Below the pieces are notes generated by a model, which saw only the letters and a list, made by a program, of their open reading frames with translations, ran no database searches and was not told where the DNA came from. From positions 1 through 30,874 of IMG/VR virus record IMGVR_UViG_3300045988_027766: a stretch of 30,874 bases of DNA; one strand, written 5' to 3'. Every line of letters starts with the position of its first letter. The first letter of the stretch is position 1. This DNA is from a virus. The position numbers were made by a program, and so were the translations under genes. This document shows, piece after piece, positions 4,613 through 28,851 of the stretch.

Positions 4613-4945
4613 ATGAACGCTGAAATGTACTCACGAATCGGCGGCAAGGCGCTGCCAGCAGATAATCTGGACACGGTCAAGGTCATTAACTTCGTGGACA
4701 AGGAAGGGCAGCCAGTAGCCTTCGGCCAGGGCCCCGCAGGCCCCGCAGGCCCCGCAGGCCCCGTAGGCCCCGTAGGCCCCGCAGGCCCCGCAGGCCCCGC
4801 AGGCCCCGCAGGCCCCGCAGGCCCCGTAGGCCCCGCAGGCCCCGCAGGCACGATCACCAAAGCCGCCCACGTCGACCCAAACACCGGCTCAGTAGCGGAA
4901 ATAGTCTCCGCCCTAATAGCCGCAGGACTCATGGAAACCGCCTAA
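4613..4945 (+). CDS. collagen-like (Gly-Pro-Ala/Val)13 repeat protein; head fibre/decoration candidate
   Basis: 110 aa starting 2 nt after the capsid stop. The core is [40 protein letters not shown], flanked by non-repetitive N- and C-terminal segments. Confidence 0.7.
4730..4849. repeat. tandem 9-bp repeat ggccccgca/ggccccgta x13 (encodes the collagen-like tract)
   Basis: Copies are perfect at nucleotide level except for c/t at one position. This creates long shadow ORFs on both strands. Confidence 0.95.
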
Positions 4946-6819: not shown

Positions 6820-7644
6820 ATGGCATCATACCCACTCATCGGCAAAAAAACCGTCTACATCGACGACATGATCATCCCACCCGACTACATCCAAGACGAA
6901 GTCGGCACCATCACCCTCACCCCCAGCACCACCGAAATCGCCAGCCAGTCCGGCACCATCAAAGTACCAAACGGCAGCTACGACGAACTCAGCTTCGAAC
7001 TCAACATCATCTGCCCAAGCGTCCGATTCCTCGGCATGCTATTCCCCGAACTCTACCACAACGCCACATTCAAACGCGTCATCAGCGGCACCATGAGCGA
7101 AACCGGCCAAGTCCGATTCGGCGGCAACGAATGCGTCAGCAACACACCACGAGACATCATCATCCACAACGTATGCGACGGCGCATCCAGCGCACAAGAC
7201 TTCCGCATCCCACAAGCACTCATCAGCGCAGGCGGCGAATTCAAAGTCAGCCTCAGCGACCCATTCGTCGTCACCCTCAGCGGCACCATGGCATCCGGCA
7301 GCGAAGGCGCAGTCATCATGGGCGAACTCGACCTGAACACGCCAAGCCACTACGACGAAACCACCGGTTCCATCAAACCAGATGAAAGTAAAATCACTGA
7401 ACTAAAGGCCATACCGTCCACCATCACCGGCAAAGCAAACGACACGGTAAAAGTCAACGTGACCGCTTTCCCGAACGGCGCAGTCGGCAACATTACCGCC
7501 ACTCCTGGTCTCGAGGGTACGGTCGAAGCAACGGACAATGGCGACGGCACATGGAACGTCACCCTGAAGAAGACTGGTACCGATACCGTCACGTTCAAAT
7601 CCGGATCCGTGCAGACTGTCGTCAACGTCAACGTGACAGCCTAG
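6820..7644 (+). CDS. major tail protein with C-terminal Ig-like (Big_2-type) domain
   Basis: 274 aa, positioned before the chaperones and tape measure. The C-terminal ~85 aa (ELKAIPSTITGKANDTVKVNVTAFPNG...TVTFKSGSVQTVVNVNVTA) look like a bacterial Ig-like beta-sandwich. Confidence 0.65.
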   Translation: MASYPLIGKKTVYIDDMIIPPDYIQDEVGTITLTPSTTEIASQSGTIKVPNGSYDELSFELNIICPSVRFLGMLFPELYHNATFKRVISGTMSETGQVRFGGNECVSNTPRDIIIHNVCDGASSAQDFRIPQALISAGGEFKVSLSDPFVVTLSGTMASGSEGAVIMGELDLNTPSHYDETTGSIKPDESKITELKAIPSTITGKANDTVKVNVTAFPNGAVGNITATPGLEGTVEATDNGDGTWNVTLKKTGTDTVTFKSGSVQTVVNVNVTA

Positions 7645-8457: not shown

Positions 8458-10509
8458 ATGGCGGATAGCACCCTCACTCTCGACGCTGAAATTAACACTT
8501 CCGATTGGGAAGCCGGTGTTAAGACCATACAGTCAGGCAGTCGCCAAATAGAAGCATCGGCACGCCAGGCAGGTGAAGGCATGGACGAAATCGACAAGTC
8601 CTCTGCCAAGGCTTCCGGCGGTACCGGTAAATTCGCTGCCATCGCCGGGGCCATGGGTGGTCTCGTGTCTACCGGCGTCAGTATGGCCATAGACGCGATT
8701 TCGGATCTTAGCGGCGATATCATCGAAGCTTCAGATTCGGCTCAGAAGTTCGCGAGCACTTTGAGTTTTGCCGGCTTGGACACGGGCACGATCGACCGGC
8801 TTACCGCTTCGACTCAGAAGTATGCGGATCAGACTGTGTACGACCTGTCAGACATTCGTAACACGACCGCACAGTTGGCTGCGAACGGTGTCGACGGGTA
8901 TGCTGAATTGGCGGAAGCCGCCGGTAACCTGAACGCCGTGGCCGGAGGTAACGCGGACACGTTCAGAAGCGTTGGCATGGTGTTGACCCAGACGGCCGGT
9001 GCAGGCAAGCTCACTACCGAAAACTGGAACCAGCTGAGTGACGCGATTCCGGGCGCTTCAGGCAAGCTTCAGGAAGCCATGAAGCAGAACGGGGCTTATA
9101 CGGGTGATTTCCGTGACGCGATGGCCAAGGGTGAGATCACCGCCGAGGAATTCAACAAGGCCGTCATGGATTTGGGTATGACCGACGCGGCGAAGGAAGC
9201 AGCGACCAGTACCAGCACTATCGAGGGTGCGATGGGTAATTTGGAAGCGTCCGTCGTGAACGTGGGCGTGCAACTCTTGGACTCGTTCAAAGGCCCGTTG
9301 ACGGAGGGTATGAGCGTGTTTGCGGAGGGTATCAGTAGCTTGCCTCAAGCGTTTAAGAGCATGATGGGGTCGATCACGCCGACATTGCAACGGTTGGGGA
9401 GCGTGTTCCAGTCTTCTTTCGTTCCGGTGGGGCAGGCTATCTCCGGTAAACTGCTCCCGGCCTTGCAGCCTTTCATGCAAGCCTTGCAACATCTTGGCAG
9501 TGCGATCATGCCTATTCTGGAGGCCGCTTTCGAAGCTTTAATGCCGGTTCTTGGTTCGCTTGTAACGGCCATCACACAGGTCGGAGGCACTATCATGAGT
9601 GCTCTCACACCGGTCATCAATAATCTGGCCATGGTTTTCCAAACAGTCCTACCGGTGATTCAACAGCAATTCCAAGTGTGGGGAACTGAAATCCAGAACA
9701 TTATCAACGCAGTGTTTCCTTTCATTCAGACGGTGATCACCACGGTAATGACTATTATCAACGGCATCATCACTACCGTATTGGCGGCTTTGCAAGGCAA
9801 CTGGAATGGTGTTTGGACAGGAATCCAGAACATTGCGGTCAGAGTATGGAATGGTATTCAGAATATTGTGACGGCTGGCGTGAACGCTGTTTCCGGTGTC
9901 GTCTCATCCGTCATGAACGCCGTTAGTAGCACATGGTCAGGCTTGTGGAATACGGTGAAAAGCATTGCCGGCAGTGCGTGGAATGGTATCACTAGTGCAG
10001 TCCGTAATGGTGTCAACAGTGTGGCGAATACGGTCAATGGTATCGGAGGTAAGATCAGGAGCGCGTTCAGTGGGGCAGGCTCATGGCTCGTCTCGGCTGG
10101 CAATAATATCATCCAGGGTTTGATAAACGGTATCAAAGGTGCCATCGGTAATGCGGTTGCAGCGGTCAAGGGTGCTGCTTCCAGTATCGTGAACGCGGCG
10201 AAGGGTGCGCTTGGCATTCATTCCCCGTCTCGCGTGTTCCGTGATGAGGTAGGCAGGATGATCCCCGCCGGCTTGGGCAAGGGCGTGGAAGCGAACATGA
10301 GTTTGGCTGTGAATCCTGTCCAACGCATGGTTGCGGATATCATGCCGAATAGTCTATTGCGTGGGCCGGCGAGTCTTCCCGTCTCGTCCCCGGTCGTCGC
10401 GAATGCGAATGGTGGGACTAGGGTATCGGCTCCGATCACGGTGAACGCGTTGGATCCGATGGCGGCCGCCAGGGAGACGGTACGCATGATTAATTTCGCT
10501 TACGTGTGA
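8458..10509 (+). CDS. tape measure protein
   Basis: 683 aa. It has a tape-measure core (..DLSDIRNTTAQLAANGV..TENWNQLSDAIPGASGKLQEAM..), periodic W/G-rich repeats (WNGVWTGIQNI, VWNGIQNIV, TWSGLWNTV, AWNGITSAV) and GIHSPSRVF near the C-terminus. Confidence 0.85.
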   Translation: MADSTLTLDAEINTSDWEAGVKTIQSGSRQIEASARQAGEGMDEIDKSSAKASGGTGKFAAIAGAMGGLVSTGVSMAIDAISDLSGDIIEASDSAQKFASTLSFAGLDTGTIDRLTASTQKYADQTVYDLSDIRNTTAQLAANGVDGYAELAEAAGNLNAVAGGNADTFRSVGMVLTQTAGAGKLTTENWNQLSDAIPGASGKLQEAMKQNGAYTGDFRDAMAKGEITAEEFNKAVMDLGMTDAAKEAATSTSTIEGAMGNLEASVVNVGVQLLDSFKGPLTEGMSVFAEGISSLPQAFKSMMGSITPTLQRLGSVFQSSFVPVGQAISGKLLPALQPFMQALQHLGSAIMPILEAAFEALMPVLGSLVTAITQVGGTIMSALTPVINNLAMVFQTVLPVIQQQFQVWGTEIQNIINAVFPFIQTVITTVMTIINGIITTVLAALQGNWNGVWTGIQNIAVRVWNGIQNIVTAGVNAVSGVVSSVMNAVSSTWSGLWNTVKSIAGSAWNGITSAVRNGVNSVANTVNGIGGKIRSAFSGAGSWLVSAGNNIIQGLINGIKGAIGNAVAAVKGAASSIVNAAKGALGIHSPSRVFRDEVGRMIPAGLGKGVEANMSLAVNPVQRMVADIMPNSLLRGPASLPVSSPVVANANGGTRVSAPITVNALDPMAAARETVRMINFAYV

Positions 10510-13243: not shown

Positions 13244-14145
13244 CTGATATTGTATTGCATCCTTTGACTGCGTTGAACGGGCTTCCGGCTTATACTGCCG
13301 ATGATTACCGGCGTGTTGTCAACCCGTTCATGTTTCCGTCTAGCGGTGGTGCCTTTAATTGTGTTAAGGGTGTCCGGGTTGGCAGTCCTAGCCCGTTGGT
13401 GACGATCGACGGGTTGACTGTTACCGTTAAGCCTCATTGTGGGACTGTGAGCCCGTGGGCGGAGTCTGGCTCGTACACGTATGCTATTACGGAGCCTATG
13501 ACGGTGAAGGTGGCTGATTCGACGGGTGATTATAAGATCGTGGTCGCCGTTTATGATCCGAGTTTGTCTCATGGTGAGACTCCTGGCGCGTGGTTGCAGT
13601 CGTGGCCGGCCAGTACTCCGGATTCGGAGATCAATGGTTTGGTTGTGGCTAGGGTTACCGCTGGTGTCGTGTCTGATGTGGCTTCGAGGATTTATCCTGA
13701 TGGCACGGTTGAGGTTCAGAATCAGTCTCAGTTGAATGATGTTTCTAAGGTGGAGGGTCAGGAGGTCGTCGTCAGGGCGAATGGTCACCGGTATCGTCGT
13801 ATTAAGGGGGTTTGGTGTCCGTTGGACGATATTAGGCTTAACGCGGGTCAGTGGTATAAGGATTGGTCGATATGGTATAAGTGTTCTATGGCCGGCAATA
13901 TCGTCAGTCTTATGGTCAAGGCGACGAGGGGCCCTGAGTGGAAGGCTGCCGCGTGGTCGAAGAGTCAGATTCTCACGTTTCCGGATTATGTGAAGCCGAA
14001 CGTGACTGATCTTAACGTTCCGGCGTCCGGTGTTGAATATAGTGGTTTCCAGTTGGATCAGACTGGCTTATATGTGAGGCCTTTCAAGGATATCACGTAT
14101 GGGAAGGGTGCGTGGTCTTCTGCGACCATTTCGTGGTCGGTCTGA
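13240..14145 (+). CDS. minor tail / receptor-binding protein candidate
   Basis: 301 aa in an ATGA overlap with the fibre gene. It is the last structural gene before a terminator. Confidence 0.4.
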   Translation: MTDIVLHPLTALNGLPAYTADDYRRVVNPFMFPSSGGAFNCVKGVRVGSPSPLVTIDGLTVTVKPHCGTVSPWAESGSYTYAITEPMTVKVADSTGDYKIVVAVYDPSLSHGETPGAWLQSWPASTPDSEINGLVVARVTAGVVSDVASRIYPDGTVEVQNQSQLNDVSKVEGQEVVVRANGHRYRRIKGVWCPLDDIRLNAGQWYKDWSIWYKCSMAGNIVSLMVKATRGPEWKAAAWSKSQILTFPDYVKPNVTDLNVPASGVEYSGFQLDQTGLYVRPFKDITYGKGAWSSATISWSV

Positions 14146-14152
14146 TATGCGG

Positions 14153-14181
14153 AAGCCCCGGTTGATTGGCCGGGGCTTTTT
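14153..14181 (+). terminator. rho-independent terminator after the tail genes
   Basis: Stem aagccccgg / ccggggctt with an 8-nt loop, followed by ttttt. Confidence 0.7.
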
Positions 14182-14196
14182 CGTATCGTTTTTTGG

Positions 14197-14544
14197 TTAG
14201 AGTGGGCAGATGCGGGTGCGGAGTTCGTCGGGGAGGCTTGGTTTCGGGTGGCGGGTGAGGAATTCCTTGTCTTCGATGATTTCGCAGAATTGTGCTAGCC
14301 AGTGGCCTAGTCTGCGGATGTAGCCGGTTTCCATGTCGTTGATGTGTTGGAGTTCGTCGCGGCTTTCGATGAGTTTGTCGATTTTTTCGTCTTGTGCGTC
14401 TATTTGTTTTTTGAGTTCGCCTTGGGCTTCGACGAGGTGTTGGTAGGCGGTGGTGAGGTTGTTGCGTCGGGAGGTGAGCCATGTGATGGTGCTGCCTGCT
14501 GCGATGCCGGCGAGTCCGATGAGGGATGTGATTAGTTCGGTCAT
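14197..14544 (-). CDS. N-terminally membrane-anchored coiled-coil protein, opposite strand to the late operon (moron-like)
   Basis: Internal ATG at 14544 of track ORF 14197..14652 gives 115 aa. The product is MTELITSLIGLAGIAAGSTITWL (TM) followed by a heptad-rich segment EAQGELKKQIDAQDEKIDKLIESRDEL. TAGACT lies 7 nt before this ATG. Confidence 0.5.
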   Translation of the reverse strand: MTELITSLIGLAGIAAGSTITWLTSRRNNLTTAYQHLVEAQGELKKQIDAQDEKIDKLIESRDELQHINDMETGYIRRLGHWLAQFCEIIEDKEFLTRHPKPSLPDELRTRICPL

Positions 14545-14572
14545 AAGATTAAGTCTACCGTAGGCTGTTTTT

Positions 14573-14581
14573 TGATATGCT
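14573..14581 (+). promoter_or_regulatory. extended -10 promoter TGaTATGCT for the lysis cassette
   Basis: The TGnTATGCT element ends 6 nt before ATG 14588, and no SD fits in that gap. The same element type occurs at 23817-23825 (minus). Confidence 0.45.
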
Positions 14582-14587
14582 GGTGGC

Positions 14588-14737
14588 ATGAGTCGTGAAG
14601 CTATCGAGGGTATCGTGTTGATACTCTTGTCGTCGTTTCTTATTGGCGTCATGGTGGTGGCTGGCTTTCTGCTTGTCGCTGGTATGCCGTCTTTCGCCCG
14701 TTTTCTGTTTACTGTCTGGTATGTTTTGACTGTCTGA
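14588..14737 (+). CDS. small two-TM membrane protein (49 aa), holin/antiholin candidate
   Basis: MSREAIEGIVLILLSSFLIGVMVVAGFLLVAGMPSFARFLFTVWYVLTV has two hydrophobic spans. It ends 11 nt before the endolysin start. It is below the ORF-track cutoff. Confidence 0.5.
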   Translation: MSREAIEGIVLILLSSFLIGVMVVAGFLLVAGMPSFARFLFTVWYVLTV

Positions 14738-14748
14738 AAGGAGACAAA

Positions 14749-15591
14749 ATGTCATATGAATACATTACGAAGTATGATAGTCCGAATTATACGAGTGGTC
14801 GCCCGTATGGGATCAAGTATATTGTGATCCACTGGTGGGGTGATCCGAATACGCATCCGACGTTCGAGGGTGTGGTCAATACCTTGTGTAGTAAGGCTCG
14901 TGGCGCGTCCGCGCATTATGTGGTCGAGGCTGGCCGTGTGGCTTGCATCGTGGATCCGGATGATCGTGCCTGGCATGCCGGTGATGGTGTCGGCGTCCGT
15001 TCGAGGGGCAATGACATGGGTATCGGTATCGAATGCAATCCACGCCAGTCCGATGGTGATTATCTGACGGTCGCGCAGTTGATTCGTGATTTGCGTGCCG
15101 AGTATGGTGACCTGCCGTTGATCCGTCACCGGGACTGCTATAACACGCAGTGTCCGGGCTCGTATGATTTGGATCGTTTGGATCGTTTGTCCCGTGGGTT
15201 GGTGGCTCCGTCTAATCCGGTGCCTGTCCAGCCGGCTACGCAGTCGGTGACCAGGCTTGAGGTTGATGGGTCTTGGGGGCCGTTGACTATGCGTCGTGCT
15301 CAGGAGGTTGCCGGCACGACTGTGGATGGTGTCATGTCCGGGCAGATCCGTTGTTTGGAGAATCGGAATATCGCCTGCTTGGAGGAGGGTGCTTCCGGTA
15401 GTGATTGGGTTGAGTGGATGTCGCATCGTTTCGGTATTACGGATAGGCCTCGTAATGCCGGCCCGGAGTTCATTCACCGTTTCCTGATGGAGATGAACGG
15501 TTTCCCGGGTGATGGTATTATCAGTCCTGCACCGAGTATGGCCGTGAAGGAGTTCCAGAAGCGGCTTAACGATGGCCGGATTTTCAACTGA
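14749..15591 (+). CDS. endolysin: N-acetylmuramoyl-L-alanine amidase (Amidase_2/PGRP fold) with C-terminal wall-binding repeats
   Basis: RBS AAGGAG. The N-terminus reads YDSPNYTSGRPYGIKYIVIHWWGDP...AHYVV...AWHAG. The C-terminal half has VDGSWGPLTMRRAQ- and GFPGDGIISP..AVKEFQKRLN-type repeats. Confidence 0.85.
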   Translation: MSYEYITKYDSPNYTSGRPYGIKYIVIHWWGDPNTHPTFEGVVNTLCSKARGASAHYVVEAGRVACIVDPDDRAWHAGDGVGVRSRGNDMGIGIECNPRQSDGDYLTVAQLIRDLRAEYGDLPLIRHRDCYNTQCPGSYDLDRLDRLSRGLVAPSNPVPVQPATQSVTRLEVDGSWGPLTMRRAQEVAGTTVDGVMSGQIRCLENRNIACLEEGASGSDWVEWMSHRFGITDRPRNAGPEFIHRFLMEMNGFPGDGIISPAPSMAVKEFQKRLNDGRIFN

Positions 15592-15606
15592 TTGAAAGGA
15601 TTGTTT

Positions 15607-15906
15607 ATGGCTAAGCATGCAGTGTTGGCTGATGATGAGCTGACTGGTGAGCCGACGGCTGATACCGCTATTACGAATGAGTGTGCGGATGGTTCGGACA
15701 ATTATGTGCCTACGTTTGATGCGGAGACGCGTCGTTGGGCGTATTTGGTGTCTGGTCTGGTGGGTATTGCCGGTGCTGTGGCGAGCCTTGTGAGTGCGGT
15801 GCCTGGTGTTCCGTCGTGGGTTGCTGTGGTTGGTGGTGCTTGCGCGCTGGCTGGTTCCGGTGTGGCTGGCTTGTTCGGCGTGCATTATGCCGGTGTGAGC
15901 CGCTAG
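15607..15906 (+). CDS. holin (two C-terminal TM helices)
   Basis: ATG 15607 follows AAAGGA (the track ORF starts at 15592). The 99-aa product has an acidic N-terminus, then WAYLVSGLVGIAGAVASLVSAV and WVAVVGGACALAGSGVAGLFGV. Confidence 0.65.
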   Translation: MAKHAVLADDELTGEPTADTAITNECADGSDNYVPTFDAETRRWAYLVSGLVGIAGAVASLVSAVPGVPSWVAVVGGACALAGSGVAGLFGVHYAGVSR

Positions 15907-15921
15907 TATCCTCTGGTATGT

Positions 15922-15967
15922 AAAACGCCCCGTGTTCGGCTTGTTCGGCCGTCTGCGGGGCGTTTTT
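15922..15967. terminator. rho-independent terminator ending the late operon; also faces the minus-strand repeat RNA
   Basis: aaaacgccccg ... cggggcgttttt: an 11-bp GC-rich stem with T5 on the + strand. On the minus strand only TTTT follows, and it is part of the stem. Confidence 0.75.
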
Positions 15968-15993
15968 GTATGGTCTGGGGGTTGTTTCAGGTG

Positions 15994-16026
15994 ATTTCAA
16001 TCCACGTTCTCCGTGAGGAGAGTGAC
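15994..16026 (-). CRISPR. solitary type I-C-like CRISPR repeat unit (single copy, no cas genes, no array)
   Basis: The minus strand reads GTCACTCTCCTCACGGAGAACGTGGATTGAAAT. It has the 5' GTC.C, an internal hairpin (TCTCC-TCAC-GGAGA) and the 3' CGTGGATTGAAAT hallmark of I-C repeats as I recall them. Confidence 0.7.
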
Positions 16027-16033
16027 TATGTTT

Positions 16034-16042
16034 AATATAACA
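16034..16042 (-). promoter_or_regulatory. extended -10 promoter TGtTATATT driving the solitary repeat
   Basis: Minus strand reads catgTTATATTaaacata. The same TGnTATATTAAACATA element is found at 19347->19332. Confidence 0.55.
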
Positions 16043-16046
16043 TGAT

Positions 16047-16076
16047 ACGGCGTGTCGTACGAATGCGGCACGCCGT
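16047..16076 (-). terminator. hairpin ending the leftward early operon; contains CGGCGTGTC box and its inverted variant
   Basis: acggcgtgtcg / cggcacgccgt forms an 11-bp stem with 1 mismatch and an 8-nt loop, 10 nt beyond the stop of 16087..16335. Confidence 0.55.
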
Positions 16077-16086
16077 GTTTTCACTG

Positions 16087-16335
16087 TCAGTCGAAGACTT
16101 CGCGGCCTTCCTTGGTTATCTGCCATCTCCAGCAGGGGCGGCCGTATCGGCTGATGCCGGCCCTGTCGACGCGTTGGACGAGTCCTTTGCGTTCGAGTTC
16201 AACCAGGCGGCTTCTCAGGCTTTGCGGCGTGTCCTGGAATCCGATTGCCGTGGCTTTTTCGGTCAACCGTTCCTGTGTCATCGGCTTACTGGCGGTGTAG
16301 AGGATCGTGAGCGCATGGAGTTTTGGAATGTCCAT
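16087..16335 (-). CDS. winged-helix (MarR/PadR-like) DNA-binding protein
   Basis: 82 aa; ..LTILYTASKPMTQERLTEKA....LRSRLVELERKGLVQRVD..GRPCWRWQITKEG is a typical wHTH layout. Confidence 0.6.
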   Translation of the reverse strand: MDIPKLHALTILYTASKPMTQERLTEKATAIGFQDTPQSLRSRLVELERKGLVQRVDRAGISRYGRPCWRWQITKEGREVFD

Positions 16336-16336
16336 T

Positions 16337-16672
16337 TCATATTCTGCTTTCTGCTTGATGCCGGTACATGGCGGCTATCGTGGTGGCGGTGACCCATCCG
16401 GCAAGCCATTTGACGCCGAAGCGGATGTGGTGGATTCGTGCTGTTGCCGCCCATGCCGGCAGTGTCGTATATGGGCTGAGACACCATCCGCAGTAGGCGA
16501 GTTCGCCGAGGCTGGAGGTTAGGCTGTCGGTCTTGTTTTCGGTTTTGCCGGTGAGTTTCTTGCGGAGTTTGGAGAAGATGTAGGCCGGGCCTGGGGAGAG
16601 TTGGGTTACGGTGGCTGCGTATCCGCCTGTCAGTCCGGCCGTGATGACGGCTGTCCACCATTCAGTCTTCAT
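16337..16672 (-). CDS. membrane protein, DUF1360-like
   Basis: Internal ATG at 16672 (MKTEWWTAVITAGLTGG..) of track ORF 16337..16858. It has a GELAYCGWCLSPY motif and hydrophobic ends. It overlaps the upstream gene by 11 nt. Confidence 0.45.
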   Translation of the reverse strand: MKTEWWTAVITAGLTGGYAATVTQLSPGPAYIFSKLRKKLTGKTENKTDSLTSSLGELAYCGWCLSPYTTLPAWAATARIHHIRFGVKWLAGWVTATTIAAMYRHQAESRI

Positions 16673-17000
16673 CGTGGGCCTCCTTGCGGCGTTTGCGGTC
16701 GATGTTGCGGAATGCGTTTCGATACATGGTTGTGGCTTTTTCTTCTGCTTCTTCTGGCGTCCAGTCGTTTTTGGTGAGCGCGTATTTTGCCGCGTTTGTC
16801 CAGATGGTTTTGCGGAGGCTGCGGTACCATCGGTCGAAGATGTGGAGTGCGGCTTCATGGTGTGCTGTTGGGGTTGTGTCGTCGTCGAGGATTTCGCATA
16901 CGTTTTCGGCGAAGAATTCTCGCATGTCGTTTACGTGGATGTTGTTGTTCTTGAAGAGGTTGACGATGTCCTGTTCTTGGGGATTGCTGGCGTGCATCAT
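16662..17000 (-). CDS. hypothetical early protein
   Basis: 112 aa in a compact operon context. No motif recognised. Confidence 0.5.
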   Translation of the reverse strand: MMHASNPQEQDIVNLFKNNNIHVNDMREFFAENVCEILDDDTTPTAHHEAALHIFDRWYRSLRKTIWTNAAKYALTKNDWTPEEAEEKATTMYRNAFRNIDRKRRKEAHDED

Positions 17001-17016
17001 TGTGTTGGGCCTTTCG

Positions 17017-17286
17017 TTATTTGTCGATGATTTCTGCTGCCGTGTAATGGATTTCTCCGTCGAGCAGTATTAGTGGGTATTTGATTGGTTTGTTTTGGTT
17101 TTTGGCGATGGTGCGTATTGCGGTTGCGGTGGGGCTGCCGGATGGGACGACGTGCAGTTGTCGCCACATCCATTGCGCTGCCGTGCGGCATGAGTCCAGG
17201 AATTTTGTGGTTTCGGGTTTGCAGGTGGGGCATCCGTCGAAGAGCACGTAGATGTCTTTGCTTTTAAGGAGGGAGTTGATTGTCAT
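17017..17286 (-). CDS. glutaredoxin/NrdH-like thioredoxin-fold protein
   Basis: The last 89 codons of track ORF 17017..18147 read MTINSLLKSKDIYVLFDGCPTCKPE... with a CPTC redox motif after a beta-strand. The start is in an ATGA overlap with the exonuclease stop. Confidence 0.6.
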   Translation of the reverse strand: MTINSLLKSKDIYVLFDGCPTCKPETTKFLDSCRTAAQWMWRQLHVVPSGSPTATAIRTIAKNQNKPIKYPLILLDGEIHYTAAEIIDK

Positions 17287-18188
17287 TGGAATGATGCTCC
17301 TGTTGTTTCGGTGATGGTGTCGATGATGTGTAGGGTGTTGAGTTGTTTGCGTTTGTGGTCGGCGATGAGGGGTTCGATGTCCTTTCTGTGGATTGGGATG
17401 ATTTGGTGTCGTGCGTCTCCGTATACGCGTGGGTCGTACATGCTGAAGTAGAGGGTTTCTAGTGTGTCGCAGACGACGAAGTATTGGAGTGCTTGTGCCT
17501 GGTATGTGTCGGGGATGAAGTCTATGCCGGTGGCTTTGGGGCTTGTGGTTTCCGGTGGGAGGACTTGCGCGGCCATGTCGGCGAGTTTGCTTGGCAGGGT
17601 GTGTTGGCGCATGTATTGTAGGTGGATCATCCATGGGATGGCGGCTTGGAGGTGGTAGGCGCTTCCGAGGCTTTTGCATTCGATGGCCCATGTTGGGTTT
17701 TCCGATGCTTGGTAGGCGTCTGGGCTGCATGCGATTCGTGGGTCTTCGTCGCTTTCCCAGATGCCGCAGTCGGTGATGCAGTCTTCCTGCTGGTAGCCGA
17801 GTTGTTGGAGGGTGAGTGTGATGTTTTCGGGTTCGAGTCTGTGTCCGCGTGCCATGGGGTTTTCTCCGTCTGGTTGTTCGGCCATGGTTTCGGCGAGGAA
17901 TTTCCAGAAGTCGATGCCGACTTTGAGGCGTTTGTTTTTTGCTTCGGCTTCGAGGATGCGTGTGTCGTAGTCTTGTGCTTTTTGGAAGTGTTCGTCGGAT
18001 TCCTTTTGTGTTTTCGCGGTTTTTGATTGTTCGAGTGCTTTGTTGCGGGTTTTGATGAGTTTGGTGGTGTCGGTTTGTGAGTAGTGGCTCATGGCTAGGC
18101 TGCCGCTTTTGGTGCCGGTGATGCGGCCTAGGCGTTCTTGGAGCCATGCGTTGGTGTCGTGGGCTTGTGATAGGTTGATGATTTTCAT
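17283..18188 (-). CDS. YqaJ-type (lambda Exo-like, PD-(D/E)xK) recombination exonuclease
   Basis: 301 aa; AWLQERLGRITGTKSGSLAM near the N-terminus, then ..IACSPDAY.. and ..WAIECKSLGS... Confidence 0.75.
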   Translation of the reverse strand: MKIINLSQAHDTNAWLQERLGRITGTKSGSLAMSHYSQTDTTKLIKTRNKALEQSKTAKTQKESDEHFQKAQDYDTRILEAEAKNKRLKVGIDFWKFLAETMAEQPDGENPMARGHRLEPENITLTLQQLGYQQEDCITDCGIWESDEDPRIACSPDAYQASENPTWAIECKSLGSAYHLQAAIPWMIHLQYMRQHTLPSKLADMAAQVLPPETTSPKATGIDFIPDTYQAQALQYFVVCDTLETLYFSMYDPRVYGDARHQIIPIHRKDIEPLIADHKRKQLNTLHIIDTITETTGASFQ

Positions 18189-18306: not shown

Positions 18307-18900
18307 TCACATACTGCTGATGGCGTTCATGAGTTTGGTCATGTCGGCTTGGGTGATTCCCCTCCAGCCTTTGACGGGGCGGTTCAGGGTGCCTGAGATG
18401 AATTCGCCGCGTGCTTCGGTTGGGAGGTGGTGTGCGTCCATCGCTTTGACGAGCGTGGCGTATTGGTCGGCTCCTATCGGCTTGTCGGCGGTCTCGTATT
18501 GCTGTCGGGCGTAGCTTCCGTCGTCGTCCTTGTCGGGGAAGATGCCGAGGATGGTGGTGAGACTGTAGCGTCGTGCATAGGTGATGGCGCTGCCGACCTG
18601 TTGGGGGTCTCCGGTGACGAAGAACGGGTATTCGCATACCGTCATCTGGTCGGTGTCGTCGAAGATGATGGTTTCGATGGTGCCGAGGATCTGGCGTCCT
18701 TCTCCCGTACCGTCGAAGGTCACTTTTTGGGTGAATGCGAGTCCGTGCTTGTTGAAGATCGGTTTGATGTTCTTGAGGAGTGTGGCGAGGTTGAGGTATT
18801 TGTAGGTGCGGCTTCCGGCGTTGGCGGTTTCGTCGGTGCTGAAGTTAGGTACTTCGTTGAGGACTTCGGCGAATTTGCGGTTGAGGCTGTTGTTTTCCAT
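18307..18900 (-). CDS. erf: ERF-family single-strand annealing protein
   Basis: 197 aa; RTYKYLNLATLLKNIKPIFNKHGLAFTQK and VGSAITYARRYSLTTILGIFPDKDDDGS are ERF hallmarks. Confidence 0.8.
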   Translation of the reverse strand: MENNSLNRKFAEVLNEVPNFSTDETANAGSRTYKYLNLATLLKNIKPIFNKHGLAFTQKVTFDGTGEGRQILGTIETIIFDDTDQMTVCEYPFFVTGDPQQVGSAITYARRYSLTTILGIFPDKDDDGSYARQQYETADKPIGADQYATLVKAMDAHHLPTEARGEFISGTLNRPVKGWRGITQADMTKLMNAISSM

Positions 18901-24751: not shown

Positions 24752-24843
24752 CCCATGGCTCCATGCCTCAGCCACCGAAGACATCGAGGCTAGGCTCCGA
24801 TCGGTCAGGACTCCCGATCCCCTTGGGTTGGGATTGGTTCCCC
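24752..24843. repeat. 92-bp perfect direct repeat, copy A (identical to 25140..25231)
   Basis: cccatggctccatgcctcagccaccgaagacatcgaggctaggctccgatcggtcaggactcccgatccccttgggttgggattggttcccc, read identically at both sites. Confidence 0.9.
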
Positions 24844-24889
24844 TCCGGGACACCGAGGCGCGCAAGCGCCCTTACTTGTTTAGGGGAGT

Positions 24890-24926
24890 GTTTACAACTG
24901 CCGGTTACAACTGGGGTTACATCTGG
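24890..24926. repeat. three tandem ~12-bp repeats GTTACAWCTGG
   Basis: gtttacaactg cc ggttacaactgg ggttacatctgg. Confidence 0.8.
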
Positions 24927-24942
24927 TATAGGTTCGCGTTTC

Positions 24943-25005
24943 CACCCAAATTCATTTTAATCTTCACCCAAATTCATTTTAATCTTCACCCAAATTCATT
25001 TGGGT
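24943..25005. repeat. 22-bp tandem iteron-like repeats x2.7, last copy forming a palindrome
   Basis: cacccaaattcattttaatctt occurs twice, then cacccaaattcatttgggt (acccaaat/atttgggt arms). Confidence 0.9.
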
Positions 25006-25093
25006 TTATTCTCAAATGGATTTCAGTCCTACCTCAAAGGGGTGTGGGCGTCTGGGCCGCGGAATTCCAACGAAAAATGCCTATCCATGTCGA

Positions 25094-25126
25094 GCATCGA
25101 GACCAAGCCCGTATCCTCCTCGATGC
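25094..25126. repeat. 33-bp hairpin element, copy B
   Basis: Identical to 24679..24711. Confidence 0.9.
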
Positions 25127-25139
25127 TTCCGAGCTTCTC

Positions 25140-25231
25140 CCCATGGCTCCATGCCTCAGCCACCGAAGACATCGAGGCTAGGCTCCGATCGGTCAGGACT
25201 CCCGATCCCCTTGGGTTGGGATTGGTTCCCC
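25140..25231. repeat. 92-bp perfect direct repeat, copy B
   Basis: Identical to 24752..24843. Confidence 0.9.
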
Positions 25232-27178: not shown

Positions 27179-27985
27179 ATGAATACCGAAATCCAAACAT
27201 TCAACTTCAACAGCGCCCCAGTGCGCACCCTGACCGACGAGAACGGTGACCCGTGGTTCGTCACCAAAGACGTATGCAACATCCTTGGACTTAACAACGT
27301 AGGCCAAGCGTTGGCACGCCTCGACGACGACGAGAAGAGTTCCATCACTTTTAAAGATGGAACCCCCGGAAACCCAAACAAGGCAATTGTTTCTGAATCC
27401 GGCCTCTACTCTCTCACCCTCGCATCACGCAAACCGGAAGCCCACGAGTTCAAACGCTGGGTAACCCACGAGGTGCTGCCTCAGATCCGCAGAACTGGCG
27501 GATACATTCCCACCACAGCCGTGGACGATGACATGACCATCCTCGCGAAGGCCGTGCTCGTCGCACAGAAGACCATCGAACTCAAGAACCAACAGCTCCA
27601 AGCCAAAGACACGCAAATCAAGGAGCTGGAACCAAAAGCGCAAGCCCTTGACGCTTTTACCGACGTGGAAGACCGACTTCTCGTCCGCGACGCCGCCAAG
27701 ATCCTCTCCAACTCCGGCACCATCATCACCGAAAAGCAGTTGCGCGAATGGATGGCAGCCAACGACTGGATCTACAAGCACAATGGTTCGTGGCAAGCCA
27801 CCGCAAGACACTGCACGGCCGGCCACCTCGTAATGGTCATGTCCACAAAGCACGGCACCAAGCCCAACGGCACGAAATTCGCTTTCCCACCCACCGTACG
27901 AATCACCCGCAAAGGCCTGGCCCTGCTACACGCACGACTCGGCGAAACCCGCCTGAACGAAACGCTCGAAACAACCACCCACTAA
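27179..27985 (+). CDS. antirepressor, Bro-N + KilAC (ANT) domains, paralog 1
   Basis: 268 aa; FNFNSAPVRTLTDENGDPWFVTKDVCNILGL...FKRWVTHEVLPQIRRTGGY, then the C-terminal part ..LLVRDAAKILS..EKQLREWM. Confidence 0.8.
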   Translation: MNTEIQTFNFNSAPVRTLTDENGDPWFVTKDVCNILGLNNVGQALARLDDDEKSSITFKDGTPGNPNKAIVSESGLYSLTLASRKPEAHEFKRWVTHEVLPQIRRTGGYIPTTAVDDDMTILAKAVLVAQKTIELKNQQLQAKDTQIKELEPKAQALDAFTDVEDRLLVRDAAKILSNSGTIITEKQLREWMAANDWIYKHNGSWQATARHCTAGHLVMVMSTKHGTKPNGTKFAFPPTVRITRKGLALLHARLGETRLNETLETTTH

Positions 27986-28003
27986 CCAAAAGAAAAGGAA
28001 ACA
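27869..28003. repeat. 135-bp near-identical direct repeat, copy 1 (vs 28717..28851)
   Basis: It covers the last 39 codons and stop of the gene plus the following SD. I found 4 mismatches, clustered in ctgaacgaa vs ctaaccaaa. Confidence 0.85.
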
Positions 28004-28005
28004 AA

Positions 28006-28833
28006 ATGAACACCGAAATCCAACCATTCGAATTCGAAAACAACCAGGTCAGGGCACTGGCCGATGGCGACGAAGTAATGTTCGTCGCATCCGACATCGC
28101 CAAGATTCTCGGATACCGCGACGCGGCCAACCTCACACGCACCCTTGACGACGACGAAAAAGGTACTCATGAAGTGAGTACCCCCCGTGGTGGTATGCAA
28201 ACCATGACTGTCCTCGCCGAGTCCGGCCTTTACCGCGCAATCCTTAATCGTGAAATCGCCTACGTGAAAGAGCCGGAATCACAGGCATTCGTGAAGCGCT
28301 TCCAGCGTTGGGTCACCCATGAGGTGCTCCCATCCATCCGCAAGCATGGTATCTACGCTACCGAAACCACCATCGACCAGATCCTAACCGACCCGGATTT
28401 CGGCATCAGACTGCTCACCAACCTGAAAGAAGAACGAGCCAAACGAATCGAAGCCGAAAACCAAGTCAAGGAGCTGGAACCAAAAGCGAAAGCATTGGAT
28501 GACTTCACCGACGTGCCCGACACCCTACTAGTCAGGGACGCCGCGAAACTGCTCTCGAACGCCGGCACGCCCATCGGCGAGAAGGAACTGCGAGAATGGC
28601 TCAGCCAGCACGATTGGATCTACCGGCATGCCGGCACATGGTGGGCAGCCTCGGAACGCGTGAAAGCCGGACACCTGGTCATGGTAGAGTCAAGATCGTA
28701 CGGACAACATAGGGACGGCACGAAATTCGCTTTCCCACCCACCGTACGAATCACCCGCAAAGGCCTGGCCCTGCTACACGCACGACTCGGCGAAACCCGC
28801 CTAACCAAAACGCTCGAAACAACCACCCACTAA
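28006..28833 (+). CDS. antirepressor, Bro-N + KilAC (ANT) domains, paralog 2
   Basis: ATG 28006 follows AAAAGGAAAC (the track ORF starts at 27748). The 275-aa product has FEFENNQVRALADGDEVMFVASDIAKILGY...FQRWVTHEVLPSIRKHGIY. Confidence 0.8.
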   Translation: MNTEIQPFEFENNQVRALADGDEVMFVASDIAKILGYRDAANLTRTLDDDEKGTHEVSTPRGGMQTMTVLAESGLYRAILNREIAYVKEPESQAFVKRFQRWVTHEVLPSIRKHGIYATETTIDQILTDPDFGIRLLTNLKEERAKRIEAENQVKELEPKAKALDDFTDVPDTLLVRDAAKLLSNAGTPIGEKELREWLSQHDWIYRHAGTWWAASERVKAGHLVMVESRSYGQHRDGTKFAFPPTVRITRKGLALLHARLGETRLTKTLETTTH

Positions 28834-28851
28834 CCAAAAGAAAAGGAAACA
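28717..28851. repeat. 135-bp near-identical direct repeat, copy 2
   Basis: See 27869..28003. Confidence 0.85.

Follow-up and report, generated by a model that had tools for sequence, protein, structure and literature searches.

A solitary type I-C CRISPR repeat that appears to have replaced a small gene in a likely Bifidobacterium phage, and its candidacy as an RNA anti-CRISPR

What might a phage do with one repeat of a CRISPR (clusters of regularly interspaced short palindromic repeats) array, and how could it have come by it? The question is raised by a viral genome, IMG/VR virus record IMGVR_UViG_3300045988_027766 (30,874 nucleotides (nt), the whole of which is called the window here), in which an earlier note, made without database searches, had picked out a promoter-driven, type I-C-like repeat on the minus strand and had proposed that it specifies an RNA anti-CRISPR or a single-repeat guide. 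Comparison of the repeat with real CRISPR arrays, and of its surroundings with related phages, shows that the locus is a genuine type I-C repeat standing alone, in a phage with no array and no cas gene detected. The features of the locus are listed below (ORF, open reading frame; UTR, untranslated region; aa, amino acids).

15994..16026, minus strand: solitary repeat unit (SRU), GTCACTCTCCTCACGGAGAACGTGGATTGAAAT, 33 nt, read 16026->15994
16034..16042, minus strand: extended -10 promoter element TGtTATATT, ending 7 nt before G16026, conserved in relatives
16047..16076, minus strand: inverted repeat ACGGCGTG-N14-CACGCCGT, directly after the stop codon of the winged-helix gene and overlapping the -35 region, conserved in relatives
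16087..16335, minus strand: winged-helix protein, 82 aa, Pfam HTH_12 (E = 3.5e-5), last gene of the minus-strand arm
15968..15993, minus strand: relic of the replaced gene, CACCTGAAACAACCCCCAGACCATAC, 26 nt, homologous to the 3' end of an ORF and its 3'UTR in relatives
15922..15966, both strands: bidirectional intrinsic terminator AAAACGCCCCG...CGGGGCGTTTT, common to the plus-strand lysis operon and the minus-strand SRU transcript
15918..16027, minus strand: predicted non-coding transcript, ~105-110 nt, comprising the repeat hairpin, 11-nt handle, 26-nt relic and terminator, with ends placed from the promoter and the terminator

The identity of the repeat was established against real arrays, a comparison that the earlier note had proposed and that bears out the type I-C architecture described there. 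A degenerate-pattern scan of one genome per prokaryotic species returned 56 stretches, most of them arrays of the phage-repeat family that recur every 66-68 nt; they come from Bifidobacterium moukalabense, B. hapali, B. thermophilum and many Oscillospiraceae and Ruminococcaceae. The commonest array variant, GTCGCTCTCCTCACGGAGAGCGTGGATTGAAAT (376 copies), is identical to the phage repeat at 31 of 33 positions; only positions 4 and 20 are changed, both from G to A, and the TCAC loop is the same. Repeats of the GTCGCTCTCCTCACGGAGAGCGTGGATTGAAAT type occur in B. moukalabense, B. hapali and Ruminococcaceae arrays and, because the B. hapali array adjoins cas2, cas1c (TIGR03640, above its cutoff), cas4, cas7/Csd2 and cas8c/Csd1, the family is assigned to type I-C. 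Spacers in these arrays have a modal length of 34 nt, with 93% of them at 33-36 nt. Type I-C repeats are ~32-33 nt long, with a 2-nt 5' overhang, a stem of 7-8 base pairs (bp), a loop of 4-5 nt and a 3' part of 11 nt, UGGAUUGAAAU/C, that becomes the 5' handle of the CRISPR RNA (crRNA) (PMC8524198). Every one of these elements is present in the phage repeat: the 11-nt handle part, TGGATTGAAAT (16004->15994), is intact and identical to that of the array repeat, UGG is intact, and the stem is partly disrupted.

The repeat is also alone. At up to 3 mismatches the window holds one copy of GTCACTCTCCTCACGGAGAACGTGGATTGAAAT (matched by 0 of 100 shuffled sequences) and no related direct repeat, the sequence downstream being a terminator homologous to that of the relatives rather than a degenerate repeat; no cas gene was detected among the 18 larger window ORFs scanned. 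We thus find a single repeat that matches a known CRISPR repeat on an element with no other full or partial repeat and no cas gene, and that resembles the subtype found in the host clade, the comparison being with the B. moukalabense and B. hapali arrays and not with the natural host strain. It is intergenic and, judged from the sequence, has a promoter within 250 bp upstream. Apart from the fold, which shares part of the cognate repeat's structure (below), these are the properties of an SRU, and SRUs have been defined as candidates for RNA anti-CRISPRs (Racrs) (PMC10651486), so the class named in the earlier note was the right one. At gathering thresholds Rfam returned nothing, and a permissive search of 15850-16150 gave only CRISPR-DR21 (E = 0.77); Rfam is uninformative for this repeat family.

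As a catalogue entry, neither the element nor its class is new, contrary to what the earlier note implied. Supplementary file 3 of Camara-Wilpert et al. 2023 (SRUFinder output, PMC10651486) already lists it as DTR_842367_15994_16027 and UGV-GENOME-0216177_15994_16027, both reading ATTTCAATCCACGTTCTCCGTGAGGAGAGTGACT, typed I-C, 94.1% identical to repeat I-C:82521 and with the coordinates of the window. The same repeat appears there under UGV-GENOME-0215712 as well, making three genome names in all, two of them at the window coordinates (PMC10651486). What is new here is the before-and-after comparison with relatives, together with the junctions flanked by protospacer-adjacent motifs (PAMs), both described below; in a term search of that paper's main text (PMC10651486), neither recombination nor where such repeats come from turned up.

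The repeat lies in the sense orientation at the predicted +1 of the extended -10 promoter, from which we infer a transcript without an ORF. The promoter was not flagged by a simple sigma-70 consensus scan and its -35 is poor; the call is supported by conservation of the element in relatives, where its counterparts (TGTTATGTT, TGATATGAT, TGATATATT and TGCTATATT) precede an 88-aa ORF. The inverted repeat over the -35 region carries one compensatory change in one relative, L103 (retrieved loci are designated by L and a number), where it reads GCGGCGTG/CACGCCGC, indicating that the palindrome has been maintained; it could be an operator, or could end the upstream operon as its terminator. At the other end, the 26 nt after the repeat run into a strong hairpin (15966->15922) that also terminates the converging lysis operon and is kept in all close relatives. 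The 110-nt RNA is predicted to fold at -34.8 kcal/mol (z = -4.6). A 138-aa minus-strand ORF that spans the locus (15710-16126) was rejected as spurious: it crosses the terminator and the variable slot described below and is antisense to the holin-like gene.

The canonical repeat is predicted to form an 8-bp stem (-14.6 kcal/mol) and the phage repeat a weaker one (-8.8 kcal/mol), in which the upper 5 bp (TCTCC/GGAGA) and the TCAC loop are kept; at the stem base, two of three pairs are lost, one through G4->A and one through G20->A. The two differences and the 5-bp stem are thus as first noted; the predicted fold adds a lower stem re-paired one register off (C5-G22, A4-U23, C3-G24 and U2-G25), which would draw the scissile site and UGG into the helix. 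What Cas5c recognizes lies mainly at the cut site, at UGG and in the 11-nt handle, and processing is inhibited by stem-base mutations but not by changes in the loop or 5' overhang (PMC8524198). As modeled, the phage RNA keeps what Cas5c reads and alters what Cas5c needs for cutting, which fits a decoy and equally fits drift.

How the repeat came to occupy this position is addressed by comparison with relatives, 44 loci of ~30-kb IMG/VR phages retrieved with the window endolysin. None of them (0/44) carries the repeat: no relative contig matched the repeat pattern, and the best match to the 33-mer has at least 12 mismatches. The only further carrier found is a separately assembled ENA contig, 100% identical over 5.2 kb; it is the one contig read of four that encode the identical winged-helix protein. 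BLAST homology to the window runs up to 15980-15993 and resumes at 16096-16105 or, in two contigs, at 16027-16033, and homology with relatives ends exactly at both repeat borders (slot boundaries were taken from BLAST and anchored alignments, as a global MAFFT alignment of the slot misplaced its 3' part). In most relatives the slot between these boundaries is ~750 nt long and holds a 108-aa HTH_3 protein (PF01381, E = 8.8e-8), the hairpin ACGGCGTG...CACGCCGT, the extended -10 promoter, a 5'UTR and a small ORF of 88-89 aa ending ...RFFHLK* or ...RFFHWK*. Two contigs (L068/L097 and L070/L099) are without the HTH_3 gene, so that the stop codon of the winged-helix gene is followed by hairpin, promoter and directly the small ORF. 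The window has the same order, with the repeat in place of the ORF.

Because the same hairpin and promoter precede the small ORF in relatives, the promoter is ancestral, and the sequence comparison indicates that, of the 5'UTR and the 88-aa ORF, only the last three codons of the ORF were left when the repeat took their place. The 26 nt that follow, CACCTGAAACAACCCCCAGACCATAC, align with ...TTC TTC|CAC CTG AAA TAG CCTCCAGAACATAC of the relatives, that is, with the last three codons, the stop and the 3'UTR, and they are for this reason a relic rather than an acquired spacer; the stop codon has drifted in the window, and the stretch shows no sign of conservation as a guide. These comparisons revise three earlier claims. 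The 26 nt are not unique sequence. The promoter does end 7 nt before the repeat, but as the inherited promoter of the replaced ORF, not a recruited one, it is a weaker sign of selection. The neighbouring gene does encode a winged-helix protein, but the suggested likeness to arrangements of anti-CRISPR (acr) and anti-CRISPR-associated (aca) genes does not hold for it: the gene has ~75% DNA identity in nearly all relatives, whatever the slot cargo, and is a backbone gene of phages without the repeat, not a repeat-specific Aca. Together, the relatives and the window form a clean natural before-and-after series, with an ORF in the former, one repeat in this lineage and the same promoter-terminator cassette in both.

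The slot itself (L066-L114, homologous to window 15994-16105) is modular, the XRE-type HTH_3 gene (108 aa) being present or absent, and by their C-termini there are at least three alleles of the 88-aa ORF (HLK, HWK/HWR and YWR/YWK). The small-ORF family comprises 288 homologue clusters, all unnamed and all on ~30-kb phage contigs; no match was found in Pfam, PHROG or PDB sequences, and the AlphaFold model (pLDDT 44) was unusable. The 88-aa ORF is a candidate anti-defence gene.

The junctions themselves point to a source. The PAM of type I-C systems is TTC. In relatives the position of the 3' junction is directly preceded by TTC (…CGC TTC TTC|CAC CTG…), and the 5' junction has a corresponding feature:

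TTC at 16063->16061 and 34 nt at 16060->16027, minus strand: the 34 nt end at the first repeat base, arranged as a type I-C protospacer would be with its PAM on one side and a repeat on the other

Under a null drawn from the relatives' sequences, a random junction is preceded by TTC with a probability of 0.008-0.020 and has TTC 33-36 nt upstream with a probability of 0.03-0.075; the joint probability of both placements is 0.0003-0.0015, calculated post hoc. As both repeat borders abut PAM-flanked, protospacer-like sequences, the arrangement suggests that the repeat was captured from a host array by recombination between spacers and protospacers. On this model a host type I-C array would have had two adjacent spacers against this phage region (GTACGACACGCCGTATCATGTTATATTAAACATA and CACCTGAAA[TC]A[GA]CC..., neighbours in one array), and a double crossover between its spacer-repeat-spacer unit and two nearby protospacers on one phage strand, through homologies of roughly 34 nt, would have put the intervening repeat in place of the DNA that separates the protospacers. 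The layout left would be a PAM and protospacer, the repeat, and a protospacer that has lost its PAM. Recombinases of the ERF/YqaJ type can use short homologies, and the ERF and YqaJ recombination genes of the phage may have helped in the capture. Searches for the junction patterns gave nothing relevant in viral contigs, where one hit was dismissed as a chance coding match, and one metagenome scan gave 25 chance hits and one unrelated array. TCA microhomology at the 5' junction was rejected, being out of register by one base.

Of the functions considered, we rank first that of a Racr that sequesters the Cas proteins of a host type I-C system, a reading in which our confidence is evenly balanced. 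The inherited promoter would yield a non-coding RNA of ~105 nt that starts at the repeat and ends in the shared terminator; made in excess, this crRNA mimic would occupy Cas5c, Cas7 and Cas8c in non-productive complexes and so dilute the crRNAs with which the host targets the phage. In its favor are the sense orientation at the predicted +1, the intact handle and UGG, and a layout that recurs in other solitary type I-C repeats of the same family. Three of these (L063 10888-10919; L013 4879-4911; L050, minus strand, reverse-complement position 7379), from a 59-kb phage and from contigs of Oscillospiraceae metagenome-assembled genomes, have the canonical repeat sequence followed by 0-30 nt and an intrinsic terminator, and L013 has a near-consensus promoter, TTGACA-N17-TATGAT, upstream of the repeat.

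Several points weigh against the decoy reading. The promoter is inherited, so its presence is not in itself a sign of selection for this RNA. The repeat is confined to one lineage, and the one independent contig read is identical to the window, a sample that offers no evolutionary replication by which conservation could be judged. Both substitutions weaken the predicted stem, from -14.6 to -8.8 kcal/mol, and decay of a neutral scar fits this as well as a decoy does. The repeat match is to representative genomes of Bifidobacterium species other than the natural host strain. As to the capture by which the decoy would have arisen, the PAM argument is post hoc, none of the 873 spacers from fetched arrays matches the slot of the window or those of the relatives, so that no donor array with both postulated spacers was found there, and the upstream protospacer would keep its PAM, so that capture alone would fall short of full escape.

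Next in our estimation comes an explanation that is possible but that we do not expect to be right: that the repeat, taken up from a host array or left behind by integration into an array and excision from it, is an inert scar of recombination or a footprint of PAM escape, the RNA, if made, being idle. It would have persisted because its arrival removed an ORF that the phage can do without and cost one targeted protospacer its TTC PAM. The exact junctions at the repeat borders with their PAM/protospacer geometry, the inherited rather than recruited promoter, the restriction to a single lineage and two substitutions that disrupt the stem without compensation are all as a scar would have them. 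A scar does not account for a repeat that lies in sense exactly at +1 with its handle fully intact, nor for the recurrence of the repeat-plus-terminator layout in unrelated solitary type I-C repeats; SRUs of this class have been shown to inhibit type I-C (PMC10651486), and an escape that leaves the upstream PAM in place is incomplete without an additional inhibitor. Resemblance by chance, or an assembly chimera of phage and host array, can be regarded as effectively refuted. The single lineage and the sub-threshold Rfam hit would suit such an artifact, but 31/33 identity over the full repeat including the loop makes the probability of chance negligible, and a chimera would not give exactly one repeat with clean phage flanks, nor would it recur in the separately assembled ENA contig or under three genome names in the published catalogue.

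If the RNA is functional, it could instead be cut rather than merely bound. In the single-repeat guide RNA that the earlier note offered as its second option, Cas5c would cut at the hairpin base to give an 11-nt handle and a 26-34-nt guide capped by the terminator hairpin, directing the host Cascade against sibling phages that keep the 88-aa ORF. A search of the downstream sequence for TTC-flanked protospacers, likewise proposed in that note, did find such targets: the 34 nt after the repeat (15993->15960) have counterparts beside TTC in a sub-clade of the relatives, in seven distinct contigs (ten loci), where the first 9 nt, the seed, match perfectly and the whole stretch has 4-6 mismatches (the L069 allele reads TTC followed by CACCTGAAATAGCCTCCAGAACATACAAAAACGC). 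The carrier would be protected because its own copy has the repeat sequence AAT at the PAM position, as in an array, and the handle and UGG required for processing are intact (PMC8524198). However, shared ancestry without selection is expected to give the sibling match, the best known targets still have 4-6 mismatches, and the relic, whose stop codon has drifted, shows no sign that a guide has been conserved. There is no second or truncated repeat, the terminator comes after 26 nt so that any complex would be short, and stem-base mutations are reported to inhibit Cas5c processing (PMC8524198). Judged by what characterizes a mini-array, the spacer matches related viruses beside the cognate PAM, which common ancestry explains equally well, but it does not lie between two repeats or between a repeat and a truncated one, only between one repeat and a conserved terminator. 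We therefore consider a guide function unlikely. More improbable by far is a viral crRNA-like regulator (Cracr), in which the pseudo-spacer would steer the host Cascade by partial PAM-proximal complementarity to a cas or creT promoter and silence it. The repeat-like unit, short spacer-like stretch and terminator do match the layout of viral crRNA-like RNAs, and type I-C Cracrs have been reported (bioRxiv 10.1101/2024.10.29.618823), but the pseudo-spacer derives from the ancestral sequence of the phage and does not imitate a host CreR/CreA. No TTC-flanked site with at least 9 PAM-proximal matches to CACCTGAAACAA... was present in the 65 fetched loci (468 kb), a set that includes four Bifidobacterium loci with this repeat, has cas genes checked only for L055, and does not extend to the cas3/cas5 promoter regions of the natural host.

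The decoy and guide readings can also be joined to the capture model in one history, which we consider rather unlikely: the locus may be a natural 'recombineering' product, in which an array with two neighbouring spacers swapped an accessory gene for one repeat under the promoter of that gene, creating a self-protected single-repeat crRNA gene whose RNA both soaks up Cas proteins and guides them against siblings that keep the ORF. If true and general, this would explain the source of viral solitary repeats and their place right behind promoters. The comparative picture opens to direct test both where solitary repeats come from and whether this one would act as a decoy or as a guide. RNA anti-CRISPRs are a recently recognized route by which phages disarm CRISPR, and a type I-C example in an abundant group of gut Bifidobacterium phages would be relevant to the dynamics between phages and hosts in the gut of infants and adults, and to type I-C tools.

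The phage that carries the repeat is likely a siphophage of Bifidobacterium of roughly 30.7 kb. The window ends are identical over 141 nt, as expected of a complete genome of 30,733 bp that is circularly assembled or terminally redundant, and it encodes a portal, major capsid protein, tape measure, amidase endolysin, ERF recombinase, YqaJ exonuclease, DnaC-like loader and Bro/ANT antirepressors. Further features that bear on the locus or on the host are as follows.

8987..9020, minus strand: protospacer in the tape-measure gene, a 30/34 full-length match to a B. hapali type I-C spacer, with TTT at the PAM position
14749-15591, plus strand: amidase endolysin, converging on the shared terminator
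15592-15906, plus strand: 104-aa holin-like protein, likewise converging on the shared terminator, with no family match and called holin-like from its hydrophobic C-terminal half only
17283-18188, minus strand: YqaJ-like exonuclease, a phage recombination gene
18307-18900, minus strand: ERF single-strand annealing protein, a phage recombination gene

A Bifidobacterium host is likely because of the B. hapali spacer match and the endolysin, whose nearest cellular homologues are in B. tissieri, B. favimelis, B. scardovii and B. choerinum (51-67% identity). With TTT for TTC and four mismatches, the tape-measure protospacer could be an escape variant or could simply have diverged. Among GenBank phages, megablast gave no match for 14000-18000 and tblastn with the endolysin found none but distant actinobacterial ones. 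Within the plus-strand late region, after the tail genes and before the lysis genes, a 151-aa minus-strand ORF (14197-14652) lies in the opposite orientation, with a weak Rz-like spanin match (phrog_1397); a minus-strand gene is called at the same position in the identical ENA contig.

Strand asymmetry in the window is very strong (GC skew to -0.45, AT skew to +0.46) and follows the physical rather than the coding strand: on the plus strand A+C prevail over 27 kb->8 kb and G+T over 9-23 kb, with switches near 8.5 kb and 23-27 kb, so that the coding strand of the tail and lysis genes (8.4-15.9 kb, plus) is G+T-rich, unlike that of the head genes. The pattern suggests a link to replication or a module of different origin. 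At the sign change of the skew, 24752-25231 holds few ORFs and contains three to four tandem 22-nt units CACCCAAATTCATTTTAATCTT (24921-25030) between perfect 92-nt direct repeats (24752-24843 on one side, 25140-25231 on the other); the region could serve as an iteron-like origin or in regulation. Directly behind the gene for the major capsid protein, ~14 tandem 9-nt units (GGCCCCGCA/GGCCCCGTA) at 4712-4885, within ORF 4613-4945, would encode a collagen-like Gly-X-Y run. Two tandem Bro-N/ANT antirepressor genes (27179-28851) share duplicated segments (27867-28003 and 28715-28851, 98%), and the stretch with their ribosome-binding site and start recurs as well (27166 and 27993).

The locus can finally be set beside known systems. 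Varble et al. (Nat Microbiol, 2019; cited in PMC8616872) reportedly described spacer-protospacer recombination between phages and CRISPR loci and the transduction of CRISPR loci in staphylococci. The capture proposed here would use the same route to join array DNA to phage DNA at a spacer and its protospacer; that work is not known to include a double crossover of the kind proposed, after which a single repeat stands where a phage gene was. Viral CRISPR mini-arrays (Medvedeva et al. 2019, as reviewed in PMC8616872 and PMC11656645) resemble the locus in having a host-type repeat followed by ~34 nt that match siblings at the correct PAM, and a carrier protected by repeat sequence in the PAM position. 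They differ in that the window has one repeat only, a 3' end that is the terminator common to relatives, and a 'spacer' that is ancestral sequence of the carrier and not demonstrably acquired. Cracrs (Liu et al., bioRxiv 10.1101/2024.10.29.618823) share the compact repeat-like unit, the short spacer-like stretch and the rho-independent terminator, but the window stretch matches no cas or creT promoter in the loci scanned and originates from a phage gene remnant. The closest likeness is to Racrs: a single CRISPR-repeat mimic of type I-C that lies between genes, close behind a promoter, in a phage that has neither cas genes nor an array and is linked to Bifidobacterium. Among them RacrIC1, an experimentally validated type I-C Racr from a B. 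pseudocatenulatum prophage, lies beside an AcrIC5 homologue (PMC10651486); like the window repeat it has an imperfect stem, and its repeat (GTGCGGCCCCGCGAGGGGGCGCGTGGATCGAAAC) belongs to a different subfamily. Co-localization with acr or aca genes is frequent but not defining in Racrs, and here the slot of the relatives offers an HTH_3 protein and a small ORF without a family, the winged-helix gene being backbone. The window repeat, known from its sequence, has no recognizable Acr, such as AcrIC5, beside it; it lies where relatives have a small ORF of no known family, and its junctions carry a PAM/protospacer footprint.

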